From assembly GCA_014905635.1 (NCBI GenBank), contig JABVCE010000020.1:496001-560000 (forward strand): 64,000 nucleotides of DNA, written 5' to 3'. Below are positions 13,712-63,366 of the stretch, one piece after another; the stretch's first letter is position 1, and each line of letters opens with the position of its first letter. The notes below the pieces were generated by a model. That model was not told where the DNA came from. It worked only from the letters and a program-made list of their open reading frames with translations, and made no database searches. The stretch is from Scenedesmus sp. PABB004. Taxonomy: Eukaryota. The translations under genes and the position numbers were made by a program.

Positions 13712-15796
13712 TCACGCCGCCGCGACTTCGCTGAACGCCGCGTGCCCCGTGGCCGCGGCGTGGGCCCTGGCCGCGTCCACGCCCTGCACGCGCTCGCCGC
13801 AGTCGTTGCATGCCAGCGCCGCCGCCGCGTGCTCCGCCGCCGCCGCGCCGGCAGGCCCGGCGCCGGGCGCCGCCGCCCCGGCCGCCGCCGCCGCCGCCGC
13901 GGCCGCCTCGGCCGCCGCCGCCTTCTGCTGCTGCTGCTGCTGCTTCTGCTGCTCCTGGTGCGTCGGCCGCCCCTTGCGGTGAAGCTTCACCTGCGCGCGA
14001 CGCGGTCAGCGCACGCCCCGCGCAGCGCGCCGCCCCGCCGCGCCGTGCCCCCCCCCCCGGCGCACCAGCGCCGCCGCGGCCGCCGTGATCGCGCGGCCGC
14101 GCCGCGTGCGGGGGTTGAACTCCGTCACGTCGTCGTCGGGCGGCGCCCGCGGGCCGGCCGCGACCGCGAGCGCGTCGTAGTGTGTGCCGGTATACATCAC
14201 CATCACGCGCTTGGCGTAGCCTGGCGGTTTGGGGTGTAGAGTTGGTTGGGGTGTAGAGTTGGTTGCGACACACCATGCGTGTGCGTCGGGGCGAGAGGGG
14301 GGGGGGGGGAGCGAGGTGATTGTCAGAGATGAGGCAGCGACGGACGAGCACGCGCACGCAGTTGGTGGGCGGGTGCGGCGTGGTGCGCGTGCAGCGCCGC
14401 CGCACCCTTCTCCTCGCCAAAGACGTGGCACGCGCCGGTCTCGAGGTTCCACGCCGCGATCTCACGCCTGGCGGGGCGCGCGGGCGCGCGGCGGGGCGCG
14501 CCGGAGGTCGCAGGCCCACGCGCGCCCGGCTACCAAGGCGCGGCGGCAGCGCAGCGCGCGCCCCCCGCGCGCCCGCGGCCCCCAGCCCGCGCCCGCCCCC
14601 GCCCGGCCTCCGACGCTGCGCCCCGCGGCCCCCGGCCCGCGCCCGCCCGCGCCGCCGCGCCGCACCGGTAGTGCGCGGCGAGGATGGCGAGCTCGATGCC
14701 GCCGCCCCAGTGCGCTGGGTTGGTGATCCAGGCGCAGTACGCGGCGTTGGACATCCCCAGGAACGCGTCGCTGTACACCTAAGGATTGTGTGTGTGTGTT
14801 GTGTGTTGTGTGTGTGTTGTGCGTGTTGCATTGCGTGGTGTGTGCTGTGTGCTGTGTGCGCTGGTTGGGTCGACGGCGCGGCGGCGCGGCGGCGCGGCGG
14901 CGCGCCTGTGGGTCGCTCGAGACCTCGCGCGACACAACCTGGCGCAGGAACGGCGCGCGGTTGGTCGCGTGGTGCATGCAGTACCCGACCGCGTTGAACA
15001 GGCAGCTGTTGTCGGCCGCGATCGGCCGCAGCGCCACGACGGCCGAGCCGTCGGCGAGCGGGGCGCAGGCCTTGCTCGGCCGCAGGCGCGCGTTGGGGCC
15101 TGCGCGGGGCGGCGCGGGGCGGCGCGGCGGCCGTCGCGGGCGGGCGGGCGGGCGGGCGGCGGCGCTGCGGGGGCGCCGCGGGGGCGCGCGCGCGCGCGGG
15201 GGCCCTTGCGCGGCGCCCGCGGCGCACCCGGCGTCGCCTTGGCCTTGGCGCCCCCCGGCGCGCTGGCCGCGGCGCGCGGCGCGCCGCGCCGCCGCGCGGC
15301 GAGCAGCGCGGCGGCCGCTGCCGCTGCCGCCACGCCGGCGGCGACGCCCGCCGCGAGGCCCGGCCGGCTGGCGAGGCCGCCCGCGGCGGACGCGCAGGCG
15401 GCCGTGACGCGCTCGAGCGCGCCCGCGCGCTCCGCTGGCGGGTCGGCCGCCGCCGCGGCCGCGGCCGCCGCCGCGCGCGCTGCCAGCGCCGCCTCCAGCT
15501 CCTCCTCGGTGTCGGCGTCGGGGTCTGCATCCGGCCTGTGGGCAGCGCCCCGCGCGGCGGCGCTCAAGCCAGCGGCGCACGGCAGCGGCGGCGCTCGGCA
15601 GCTGCTGCACGCGCTCGCTCGCTGCTCATTGGCGGGGGCGGTCGGCCCGGACGCCCGGGGCAGGGTGGGGGCCCGCAGGGCGCCGCTGCTGCCGGCGCGG
15701 CGGGCGGCGGCCGCCGCACCGCTGCTCGTCGCTCTCGCTCTCCTCCTGGCGCCGCCGATACCTCACCGGCGCCGCGCGACTGCTCGAGTGCTGCAT
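13712..15796 (-). CDS. YOD1: OTU1/YOD1-type deubiquitinase with C-terminal C2H2 zinc finger, multi-exon
   Basis: IAADNSCLFNAVGY (catalytic D..C), HWGGGIELAIL, MVMYTGTHYDAL (His), ACNDCG...AHAAATGH zinc finger. The start ATG at 15796 is inferred from phase-compatible splicing and is less certain. Confidence 0.88.
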
Positions 15797-16075
15797 CGCG
15801 GGCAGCAGCTCCGGGTGGCGAGCTGGTGCTGCCGGCTGCTGGCGGCGGCAACGGCGGGCGCTGCTGCTGGCGTGCGAGCGTGCGAGTGTGCGGCGGCGGC
15901 TGTGGACTGGCCGTGCTGGCACTGTGCTGCTGTGCGCACGCGGGCACGCGCGCAAGCGGCCGCGGCGCCCCGCGGCTCGGCCAGGGCTCAGGCGCGTCTT
16001 GGTTGCCGTTTGGCACCAACTCTGCCAGCCCACAACACGCCGCCGCCACTGCCACCGCCGCCGCCAGCGTCCTGC

Positions 16076-16675
16076 TCACAGGGCGAGGCCCAAGTAGCAG
16101 CAGAGCAGCGCGGCGACGCGGCCGCGCGAAACCGCTACCAGCAGCGCGCCGCACAGCCCCACCGCCGCGGCGACCAGCAGGCCGCGCAGCAGCAGCAGCA
16201 GCGGCCGCGGCCGCGCCGGCGGCACCGCCGACGGCCGCGCCGCAGGGCCGTCGGACAGCCACGCGCCTGCTGCTCCGCCGCCGCTGGCCGCCGCGAGCTG
16301 CCCGCGGCCGCGCCGCTCCGCGGCGGCGCCGTCGGCTGGGCGCGGCCGCGCCCAGCCCGGCCACGACGCGCCCAGGCCGGCCAGCAGCGCGGCGCCGCCG
16401 GCGTCCGCGGCGCGAGCATAGAACACGCGCGGCCCGCCGCCGCCGAGGACGTCGCCGTAGCAGACGTGCGGCGCACCCCGGCCGAACGCCGACAGCCCCA
16501 GCTGCGCGCCTTTTAGCCGGTCGGGCTGCCGGGCGGCGGCGCCCGGCAGCAGCGGCTCGCTCGCGCCGTCGCCGCGGAAGCGCCGCGCGCCCAGGCTCCC
16601 CCGCGGCGGTCGCCGGGTGTGCCCCGGGACGAGGGGCGCGCGTCGGGGCCACGCGGACGCGGCGTGGGCGCGCAT
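16076..16675 (-). CDS. Hypothetical intronless 199-aa protein with a hydrophobic C-terminus
   Basis: ATG-to-TGA ORF with GC3-rich codons ending LLLLLRGLLVAAAVGLCGALLVAVSRGRVAALLCCYLGLAL. No family recognised. Confidence 0.35.
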   Translation of the reverse strand: MRAHAASAWPRRAPLVPGHTRRPPRGSLGARRFRGDGASEPLLPGAAARQPDRLKGAQLGLSAFGRGAPHVCYGDVLGGGGPRVFYARAADAGGAALLAGLGASWPGWARPRPADGAAAERRGRGQLAAASGGGAAGAWLSDGPAARPSAVPPARPRPLLLLLRGLLVAAAVGLCGALLVAVSRGRVAALLCCYLGLAL

Positions 16676-61193: not shown

Positions 61194-61593
61194 GCCGGCG
61201 GCGCCGAGAGGGGACGTGTGTGCACACGTGCCGGCGTGCGAGTGGCGGGCTGGCCGGGCGCTGTCGGGCGCCAGGGCCTGCAAACGCGGCGCCGTCGTTT
61301 CGTTCGAGCGGCGGTACCCCGCCGCGCAGACACGCGCGCCGCCCTCCCTCCCCCTCCCCGCACATGGACCGGCACTCCCTGCGTCCCTTCCACGCCGGCG
61401 TCCCTGCACGCGCGCAGCGCACACACGCGGAACGGCGCCTTGGCATCGCAGCAGCAGCAGCCCCCCGGCGCCTCTGCCCCACGCCGCGGGTCGCACGCCC
61501 CTCCCGGTCGCGGATCGTCAATCCAGGGAGCGACCAGCGCGGTGCGGGAGGACTGCGCTCACCGCAGGCGCCGCGGCAACGTTTGGCGGCACG

Positions 61594-63366
61594 ATGGTCG
61601 GCGCCGCCGCCCCGGGCGCGGCCGGGCTGCGGGAGCAGGGGAACGCGCTGTTCAAGGCGGGCGACTTCCTGAAGGCCGCCGCCAAGGTGGGGCCTCGGGG
61701 GCGTCGCGCGTTTGTGCGTTCGCGCAGTGGCCCGGCGCGTCGGCGGCCCTGGCACGAAGCGCCGCCGCGGCGCCGCCGCCGCAGTACACCGCGGCGCTGC
61801 GCGAGCCGGGCACGCCCGACGCCGACGCGGCGCGGCTCTACAGCAACCGCTCGGCGGCGCTGCTCAAGCTGAACAAGGTGGCCAAGGCGCTCGCGGACGC
61901 GGAGGCCGCGGTGCGGCTGGACCCGGGCTGGGACAAGGCCCACATGCGCATGGCGCTCGCGCTGGAGAGCGCGGAGCGCCTCGAGGAGGTGCGGCGGCGG
62001 CGCAGGGCGGCGGCGGGTGGCGGCGCCGGGGGGCGGATGGGCGGGCAGCGCGGCGGCGCACCGCTCGACGCGCTGCGCGGCGATGCAGGCGCTCGCTGCG
62101 TACCAGAGGGCCGCCGCCGCGGCCGCGGCGGGCGCGGACGCCGAGTACGCCGCGCGCGTCAAGGCGCTGACAAAGGCGGTCGGCCGGCGCGCCTCGACGG
62201 CGGCCAAGGTCGCCAAGTCAAAGGCGCGCGACCGCGCGGCCGCAGGGGGACGCGCGGGCGCTGCGGCGCGGCGCCGCCGCAGCAGCAGCGGCGGCGCGAG
62301 CCCCGCCCGCCGCCCGGCCGCGCCGCGCAGGCGCGGCACTCGCCTGCCGAGGCGGCGGCGCTGGAGTGGGCGGAGGCCAAGTGCGCGTACGCGCTCGAGC
62401 GCGCGCGCGACGAGGGCACAGGCTTTGCGCCCGAGCTCCACTTCCTGCAAGGTGCGCGCCGGCGCAGGCGCTGGTGCTGGCCGGCGTGCCGCGCCAGCGC
62501 CGGCGCGTGCTGCAGCGGCGCGGCCGCCCGAGCCGGCGCCGCGGCGCGCGCCGCCCGCGCAGGCCGCGGCACCAGCGGCGGCGGCGCCGCCGCCGCCAGC
62601 GGCGAGGTCGCCGTGCGCGCGGCGCGCGCGTTTGACGCGCCGGAGGTGCTCGCGGAGTTCGTCGGCCAGGTTTGTGCGCCCGGGGGCAGGCTGGCGAGCG
62701 CCGGCGAAGCGGGCGCGCCGTGCTGCCGCGCTCCCTTGCCCGACGCACGCGCCGCCGCGCCCGCGCCCGCGCCCGCCCCGCCAGATGCGCAGCAAGGCGG
62801 AGGAGCTGGGCGCGCGGGCCGTGCTGCTCATCGCGCCCAAGCAGGCCGTGGCGTTCCCGCAGGCGCGGCTCCGCGCGCCCGCGGCCGGCCGCCTGGCGCA
62901 GCTGCTCGCGGCCGGGCGGCGCGCGGGCGCGCCGACCGCGCCGCGCCGCGCCGCCCGCCCGCCGACGCGCGCCCGCTGTGCGTCCGCGTGTGCAGACGTG
63001 GCGCCGCGCCGACTGGCCGTTTGCCGCGCACGACGGCGTGTTTGTGCAGCTGCAGGCGACGGTCGCGGCGGCGCCGGCAGACAGCGCGGGCGGGCGGCCC
63101 GACCAGGCGGCCAAGGGCGCGGGCGAGGGCAGCAGCGTGCTGCGCCGCGTGTGGTTCATTCGCATGCGCGACGGCAAGCCCCCGCTGTGAGCGCCGCCGC
63201 AGCGCTCAGGCCGGGCGCGACTGCCCTGGGCGGCACCGCGCGGCGGCGCGCCGCGCCAGCCGCGCGCCTCACCGCCGCCCGCCGCGGCGCGCCTGCCGCC
63301 GCTGCCCGCAGGGAGGCGCAGGAGGTGGGCCAGGAGTTCGAGCTGCTGCCGCTGGTTCTGAAGTGA
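61594..63366 (+). CDS. Carboxylate-clamp TPR co-chaperone-like protein (plant TPR3-like), 8 exons
   Basis: LREQGNALFKAGDFLKAAAKY, LYSNRSAALLKL, ALADAE..LDPGWDKAH, and C-terminal AFPQTW..HDGVFVQ..LRRVWFI; TGTAA at 63388. Confidence 0.85.

Follow-up and report, generated by a model that had tools for sequence, protein, structure and literature searches.

Frequent GC-AG introns in a GC-rich genomic stretch of the green alga Scenedesmus sp. PABB004

Introduction

Can a substantial part of the introns of a eukaryote begin with GC instead of GT, and what would allow them to do so? The question is raised by a 64,000-nt stretch of Scenedesmus sp. PABB004 DNA (GenBank assembly GCA_014905635.1, contig JABVCE010000020.1, positions 496,001 to 560,000 of the forward strand; this whole stretch is called the window below), in which a first-pass annotation, made from the letters alone, had placed 16 introns with GC donors in nine genes. 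GC-AG introns are the main noncanonical class and account for ~1% of introns in most eukaryotes; in plants, 97.9% of introns are reported to be GT-AG, and the GC content of genomes is reported to correlate with that of their splice sites (PMC7072748). The value of ~1% with which the 16 introns had been compared is correct, though published precedents in GC-rich algae had been overlooked.

We followed up these introns by comparison with deposited proteins, homologues, solved structures and related algae. They are very probably ordinary U2-type spliceosomal introns of the nuclear genome that have a GC donor and occur at an unusually high share (~15-25% of the introns in the window), as a result of GC-biased substitution combined with compensation in the rest of the donor.

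GC-AG introns in the window and in deposited protein models

The origin of the DNA is clear from MAPK exon 1, which is 100% identical to the GenBank protein 'erkB [Scenedesmus sp. PABB004]'. The genome of the strain is described under the name Scenedesmus glucoliberatum PABB004 as having 39.8 Mb, 78.5% GC and 7,092 annotated genes, and those of related Scenedesmus and Tetradesmus as having ~57% GC (PMC12571836; PMC13248705). GC content of the window is 77-81% in each 4-kb bin.

All 16 intervals (Table 1) have GC at +1/+2 and AG at the 3' end, as U2-type GC-AG introns require, and all are preceded by exonic AG on the strands originally proposed. Fourteen of the 16 donors read AG/GCGCG (the slash marks the exon-intron boundary), so that the description of this motif as the prevailing one holds. 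The minor, U12-type introns, whose donor motif is /RTATCCTT, were considered and rejected: the 16 donors read GCGCG, GCGAG or GCACG, and none contains TATCC. CTGAC-like branch motifs are rare in both donor classes (3 of 42 GT and 2 of 16 GC introns). The dinucleotide GC makes up 22% of all dinucleotides in the window, and AGGCGCG occurs 82 times on its two strands, 14 of these occurrences being claimed donors. Because most copies lie elsewhere, the motif is not diagnostic, and the case therefore rests on protein evidence. All reading frames are open in the window, which makes open reading frames (ORFs) useless for testing gene structure here.

Three deposited PABB004 proteins could be mapped back exactly onto the window. 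Five of 28 resolved introns were GC-AG in P0001, 4 of 18 in P0121 and 2 of 7 in P0145, giving 11 GC-AG introns among 53 resolved introns, all 11 base-exact with respect to the intervals of the first-pass annotation. The public annotation already contains these GC introns implicitly. A share far above ~1% is suggested by this count, in genes largely picked for their GC introns (11/53 against an expectation of 2%, p = 7e-9), and a comparable value was obtained for 16 of ~115 introns, where the total is a rough hand count (p = 1.5e-9 against 2%).

Two of the deposited models join neighbouring genes. P0001 (1558 aa; 20995-31102, minus strand) fuses Serinc, MAPK, expansin-like and prefoldin 4 genes, and P0121 (1046 aa; 41960-48149, minus strand) fuses GH1 beta-glucosidase with FAD synthetase. 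Because of such fusions, the number of annotated genes (7,092) is probably an underestimate. Serinc and FAD synthetase, the two by-catch genes of the fused models, contain zero GC introns.

When introns were scanned for de novo, with decoy bases allowed at +2, 36 of 58 reference introns were recovered; the scan is too unspecific to yield a rate. Its candidates had T, C, A and G at +2 in 63, 37, 9 and 6 cases, and in 37, 12, 3 and 0 cases at a score of at least 50; one A decoy could be traced to a nearby GT donor. The scan, which also gives false calls, proposed further candidate GC-AG introns at 32962-33146, 39767-39916 and 48991-49172 (all plus strand).

Table 1. Positions, lengths, phases and donor sequences of the 16 GC-AG introns in the window
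Intron	Position	Strand	Length (nt)	Phase	Donor and remarks
OTU1/YOD1-like deubiquitinase	14779..14905	-	127	0	CAG/GCGCGC...CTTAG
Stomatin-like (SLP/Band 7), intron 1	17298..17477	+	180	2	CAG/GCGAGC
Stomatin-like, i4	18066..18266	+	201	2	CAG/GCGCGC
V-ATPase subunit G (VHA-G)	20305..20399	+	95	0	GAG/GCGCGG
Prefoldin subunit 4 (PFDN4)	21113..21243	-	131	2	CAG/GCGCGC
Expansin-like (DPBB)	23171..23350	-	180	0	CAG/GCACGC
MAPK, intron 7	26561..26712	-	152	0	CAG/GCGCGC
MAPK, intron 4	27300..27438	-	139	0	AAG/GCGCGG; within the HRDIK/PSNLL motif
MAPK, intron 1	27999..28210	-	212	0	CAG/GCGCGC
Nucleoprotein TPR/NUA-like coiled-coil gene (probable intron)	38883..39002	+	120	0	CAG/GCGCGC
GH1 beta-glucosidase, intron 12	44812..44969	-	158	2	
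GH1, intron 7 (GH1b)	46238..46370	-	133	2	
GH1, intron 6 (GH1c)	46520..46699	-	180	0	lineage-specific
GH1, intron 2 (GH1d)	47664..47765	-	102	0	
TTC1/TTC4-like TPR gene, intron 3 (TTC i3; probable)	62224..62330	+	107	0	AAG/GCGCGC
TTC1/TTC4-like gene, intron 6 (TTC i6)	62863..62995	+	133	0	CAG/GCGCGG

Placement of the junctions by homologues and solved structures

For 34 introns (11 of them GC-AG) in four genes (MAPK, GH1, TTC and SLP), all combinations of donor and acceptor within ±30 nt were generated irrespective of their dinucleotides, and the spliced peptides were scored against homologues from other organisms. In 26 of the 34 introns, most informative homologues placed the modelled junction in the top-scoring set; these are 17 GT-AG introns and 9 of the 11 GC-AG introns. 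Outside this group were MAPK i7, TTC i3 and six GT-AG introns, the latter mostly in poorly conserved stretches.

Several GC junctions were in the top-scoring set for every homologue that could be used: MAPK i1 and MAPK i4 (10/10 each), GH1c (8/8), GH1d (7/7 informative homologues, 8 given) and TTC i6 (4/4, with the best GT-AG alternative 36-38 points lower). In the stomatin-like gene, the i4 junction was in this set for 23 of 24 homologues, with a junction-spanning peptide identical to P0183, and that of intron 1 for 6 of 7 informative homologues (24 given), with a spliced peptide that aligned to P0183 without gaps. The junction of GH1b was top-scoring for 6 of 8 homologues and that of GH1 i12, which is also found in the deposited P0121, for 5 of 8; the best GT-AG alternatives were 37-47 and 35-54 points lower, respectively. 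MAPK i7, also present in the deposited model, was in the top set for only 2 of 10 homologues, namely the closest relatives P0002 and P0003, whose sequences are identical to the spliced peptide. For the other eight, rival placements without an AG acceptor gained 1-5 points through a single Cys versus Ala/Ser residue, which accounts for the low count of this intron.

The TTC gene (61594-63363, plus strand), first named TPR3-like, belongs to the TPR co-chaperone type; it is deposited as TTC1, and a Tetradesmus relative carries the name Cns1/TTC4 wheel-domain protein. Intron 3 of the PABB004 gene is the least certain of the homologue-tested introns and is ambiguous. The GC-AG form is implied by the deposited model P0145 and scored 4, 4 and 20 points ahead of a GT donor 15 nt upstream (AAG/GTCGCC), which would delete five residues; we consider a GC-AG intron at this position probable.

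Other introns were examined by means of solved structures and domain searches. On solved OTU1 chains, the two OTU exons are directly contiguous and meet between residues 64 and 65 of 4boq_A and between residues 62 and 63 of 3by4_A. In VHA-G, residue 63 of the plant VHA-G chains 36qu_H and 7uw9_H marks the end of the upstream exon, and a search of solved structures gave no relative of the downstream exon; the length of this intron is frame-shifting, and it scores 51.6 in the de novo scan. The PFDN4 intron is implied by the deposited P0001. Its upstream exon matches positions 32-75 of Pfam Prefoldin_2, with nothing useful from the solved-structure search, and the downstream exon aligns weakly to residues 100-131 of human PFDN4 (7wu7_4, E = 0.23). 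The expansin-like intron is also implied by P0001, and the search of solved structures gave no independent homologue of this segment. Identification of the NUA/TPR-like gene is based on Pfam PF25785 (E = 3.2e-13), and its intron scores 59.8 in the de novo scan. Pfam searches with 48-residue exon fragments matched the expected family in 4 of 14 cases and are too coarse for placing junctions. Altogether, the observation that conserved protein sequence points to GC donors was confirmed through deposited models, homologues and OTU1 structures, with TTC i3 remaining ambiguous and with weaker evidence for VHA-G, PFDN4, expansin and NUA.

GT-AG alternatives and intron retention

The GC donors might be an artefact, caused either by T-to-C assembly errors at +2 or by wrong gene models, the true donors being GT sites close by or the in-frame segments being translated. 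Sequence with 80% GC is indeed hard to polish, and a length divisible by 3 is found in six of the 16 segments, five of which lack an in-frame stop. We nevertheless find this explanation barely credible. Sixteen errors that all fall on +2 and all behind AG are implausible, and an independent contig of a relative (P0004) also implies GC at MAPK intron 1.

The possibility of nearby GT donors was examined directly. For ALTERNATIVES at the 16 sites, no in-frame GT-AG pair is present within ±36 nt in 7 cases, among them stomatin-like i1, VHA-G, expansin, MAPK i4, MAPK i7 and NUA. In the other nine, every in-frame GT-AG pair deletes 1-24 residues or adds at least 5, and none is residue-neutral; apart from one PFDN4 alternative, the deletions comprise at least 3 residues. 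For example, each of the four in-frame alternatives of the OTU intron, whose length is not a multiple of 3, deletes at least 6 residues, and GH1d has no GT-AG candidate within ±30 nt and three within ±36 nt, which delete 13-20 residues. At none of the 16 sites does an in-frame GT-AG alternative retain the residues that are conserved.

Translation of the segments was rejected on several grounds. Ten of the 16 have lengths that are not multiples of 3 and shift the frame if kept, so these must be removed. Retention of GH1c is ruled out by its in-frame stop, which makes it a true intron. Homologues have no insertion at stomatin-like 1 and 2, GH1c and GH1d, and the junction enumeration described above also speaks against retention. 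Finally, all 58 compiled introns (42 GT and 16 GC) score negative for codon statistics in all three frames, compared with a mean of +0.96 bits per codon for exons, in which GC content at codon positions 1/2/3 is 0.70/0.52/0.94; the intron model was trained on the same 58 introns, which introduces a mild circularity. For the expansin and NUA segments, which look noncoding in three frames, it is these codon statistics alone that appear to exclude retention.

Donor context and compensation

Donor context was compared between the 42 GT and 16 GC donors of the compiled set. Among GT donors, position -2 is A in 22, -1 is G in 30, +3 is G in 38, +4 is C in 29 or A in 8, and +5 is G in 41. The GC donors were more uniform, with C at -3 in 13, A at -2 and G at -1 in all 16, G at +3 and C at +4 in 15 each and G at +5 in all 16. 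Exonic AG precedes 16/16 GC donors versus 13/42 GT donors (Fisher p = 1.7e-6); in other words, where exonic AG is present 16 of 29 donors are GC, and where it is absent none of 29. Part of this association may reflect recognition of GC donors exclusively in an AG context, both by the earlier reader and by the annotation pipeline. The homologue-tested introns escape this caveat, as their placement was blind to dinucleotides.

GC 5' splice sites are described as having a stronger consensus elsewhere in the donor, which offsets the +2 mismatch with U1 (PMC3167603). The class found here behaves accordingly for U2-type introns: the rest of the donor fits the consensus of the species itself and is enhanced in a way that compensates for C at +2. 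The original proposal that GC is tolerated only when exonic pairing to U1 is perfect can be kept in part. The requirement for exonic AG is strict (16/16), but "perfect" is an overstatement, since out of the 9 positions of the textbook CAG/GTAAGT, GC donors match 4.94 on average and GT donors 5.07. With equal matches in the two classes, the loss at +2 is offset and not exceeded.

These data suggest the following mechanism. Strong GC-biased substitution, in the form of mutation bias or biased gene conversion, would turn T at +2 into C. The C would persist only where the donor is otherwise at consensus, with C-A-G at the exon end and G-C-G at +3 to +5, such that U1 pairs gained at -2 and -3 offset the pair lost at +2. 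Donors without exonic AG would stay GT.

An alternative is that the spliceosome itself has adapted, through variant U1/U6 snRNA, as the first-pass annotation had suggested, or through protein factors that make C at +2 fully acceptable. It could account for two features: G at +3 and C at +4, an unusual consensus common to GT and GC donors, pair poorly with the U1 5' end as given in textbooks, and behind exonic AG the +2 position looks nearly neutral, given that 16/29 donors there are GC. On the other hand, the absence of GC among the 29 donors without exonic AG is what an unmodified U1 interaction predicts. Variant U1/U6 is also not needed, because standard spliceosomes are reported to splice GC donors in all eukaryotes (PMC3167603). 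We therefore regard an adapted spliceosome as unlikely. A search of the 64-kb window against Rfam gave 0 matches.

Donors in related algae and intron history

GC pressure had been proposed as the cause of the GC donors, and it agrees with how GC-rich the genome (78.5%) and the window (77-81%) are, as well as with the finding that relatives have GT at two shared intron positions. These positions could be read from short "proteins" called as ORF fragments on genomic contigs of relatives, which run from an exon into the following intron. The first residues past the exon end of such read-through fragments reveal the donor dinucleotide. At GH1b (phase 2), P0127, P0128 and P0129 continue with Arg-Trp, corresponding to G/TGG, so that the donor is GT in all three relatives that have the intron; fragments of four other relatives have no intron at this position. 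For the phase-0 MAPK intron 1, Val follows the exon in five fragments (P0005, P0006, P0023, P0063 and P0103), corresponding to GT, and the exon of P0005 and P0006 is identical (56/56) to NREL and Tetradesmus proteins. A sixth fragment, P0004, continues with Ala, corresponding to a GC donor; its best full-length match is PABB004's own protein. A scan of metagenomes for genomic GH1 loci of relatives gave nothing usable, the 78 loci found containing intron-less GH1 genes with 32-45% identity, which are presumably bacterial.

The comparison of orthologous positions, recommended as a check on the GC-pressure hypothesis, thus supports it at GH1b (GT in 3/3) and at MAPK intron 1 (GT in 5/6), but not for P0004 and not for GH1c, which has no counterpart in 7/7 relatives. 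Taken together, data from relatives suggest that old intron positions underwent T-to-C change within the lineage of PABB004. They also point to one GC donor that is older than PABB004 itself (MAPK intron 1, shared with P0004) and to one intron that was newly gained with a GC donor (GH1c). The latter is not a converted old intron, and new introns can apparently also start with GC here.

The absence of GH1c from genomic ORF fragments of all seven relatives indicates that it is lineage-specific and raises the possibility that many GC-AG introns are recent introner-like insertions or other new gains that arrived with GC donors; GH1c fits this idea, as its in-frame stop marks it as a true intron. 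Introner elements, according to what Huff et al. are said to have reported in 2016, are repeated intron families of Micromonas and Aureococcus and a source of lineage-specific algal introns. PABB004 resembles these algae in having a lineage-specific intron and differs in that its introns have no similarity beyond simple repeats. An all-against-all blastn comparison of the 58 introns gave no family-like similarity, and only pairs of GT-AG introns with simple repeats exceeded shuffled controls; the best pair involving a GC intron scored 75 bits, and the top scores of 20 dinucleotide shuffles were 60-75 bits. An introner family was rejected on this basis. Moreover, MAPK intron 1 and GH1b are old positions common to relatives, and recent gain is quite improbable as a general explanation for the GC donors.

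In P0005 and P0006, MAPK exon 1 (28211-28378, minus strand) contains an extra in-frame intron between GKG and AYG, which is absent from PABB004 and P0004. P0005 and P0006 are Tetradesmus/NREL-like, so that close relatives differ from one another in an intron lost or gained.

Weighing of the evidence

Several points weigh against the interpretation that GC-biased substitution with compensation has produced a high share of U2-type GC-AG introns. The junctions are known from comparison of DNA and protein alone, in place of transcripts, and splicing in RNA at these sites is accordingly a prediction. Deposited models are themselves predicted and visibly faulty, with neighbouring genes fused, so their agreement is no independent proof. 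The ratio of 11/53 was drawn mainly from genes that had been selected for their GC introns; a high genome-wide rate would be an extrapolation from them. Four of the 16 introns (VHA-G, PFDN4, expansin and NUA) have weaker evidence that does not include a full independent homologue test, and for none of 3 informative homologues does the TTC i3 junction reach the top-scoring set. Donors of relatives were read from single amino acids in ORF fragments, and the direction and cause of the proposed T-to-C changes are suggested by such data. In addition, P0004, in which the intron read-through seems less GC-rich, already has GC at MAPK intron 1, and extreme GC content is hence not needed for every case; and the lineage-specific GH1c is not explained by simple T-to-C conversion. 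Against these stand the points that could be shown: the intron boundaries, the strict donor context and GT at orthologous positions of relatives.

A further-reaching version would hold that the GC-AG share of PABB004 is the highest known in the green lineage, at 15-25% genome-wide, that +2 is effectively neutral behind exonic AG, that introns are gained with GC donors and that U1/U6 are possibly adapted. We consider this version rather doubtful.

Comparison with other organisms

In animals and plants, GC donors have a core of the GCAAG type. The introns described here resemble such U2-type GC-AG introns in the GC start, the AG end and the strengthened donor (exonic AG in 16/16), and differ from them in share (11/53 here, usually ~1%) and in core, which is GCGCG.

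The closest published parallel is the alga Emiliania huxleyi, in which Feldmesser et al. (2014) reported GC donors in 135 of 241 junctions (56%), nine of them verified by RT-PCR, and named the genome GC content of 65% as the probable cause (PMC4028052). Like PABB004, judging by the introns of the window, it is a GC-rich alga in which GC-AG introns are a major class and the AG acceptor is kept. Unlike PABB004, it is a haptophyte and not a green alga, it has a higher share at a lower genome GC, and some of its junctions were supported by RT-PCR, as opposed to sequence in our case. In the pelagophytes Aureococcus anophagefferens and Pelagomonas calceolata, predicted GC-AG shares of 14-17% and ~14% were likewise attributed to high genome GC (bioRxiv 10.1101/2024.10.30.620910). 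The share and the proposed cause are similar to those suggested for PABB004; these organisms are, however, stramenopiles, and the published figures come from predicted models. In mammals, 298 GT>GC versus 40 GC>GT changes were counted at conserved intron positions (Churbanov et al. 2008, PMC2490688). Such directional change from GT to GC recalls the situation in which relatives carry GT where PABB004 has GC, but the share in mammals is ~1%, and the authors are reported to favour selection for alternative splicing over composition bias (PMC2490688).

A literature search, judged partly by titles and the beginnings of abstracts and not covering the genome paper of the strain (Calixto Mancipe et al. 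2022), gave no report linking GC-AG introns to Scenedesmus, other Sphaeropleales or green algae. PABB004 appears to be a taxonomically new example of a known phenomenon, as the principle and its explanation are already in print for Emiliania huxleyi and pelagophytes.

The practical consequence is that, wherever GT donors are taken for granted, gene finders can be expected to get about one intron in five wrong in PABB004 and similar genomes. Relatives with ~57% GC and GT at the same positions offer a clean comparison, which can measure erosion of +2 by GC-biased substitution and also gauge how strictly compensation by exonic AG is required. If the share is as high as suggested and +2 is neutral in the AG context, PABB004 would provide a natural experiment in which composition bias erodes the most conserved base of the splice site.

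Additional features of the window

Two compositional features coincide with genes discussed above. The third intron of the stomatin-like gene contains a (CT)n microsatellite (~17790-17880, plus strand), which reads LSLSLS whichever of the three frames is used. At window positions 32000-44000, a strongly positive AT skew (+0.16 to +0.32) accompanies the A-rich coiled-coil NUA/TPR-like gene of the plus strand.

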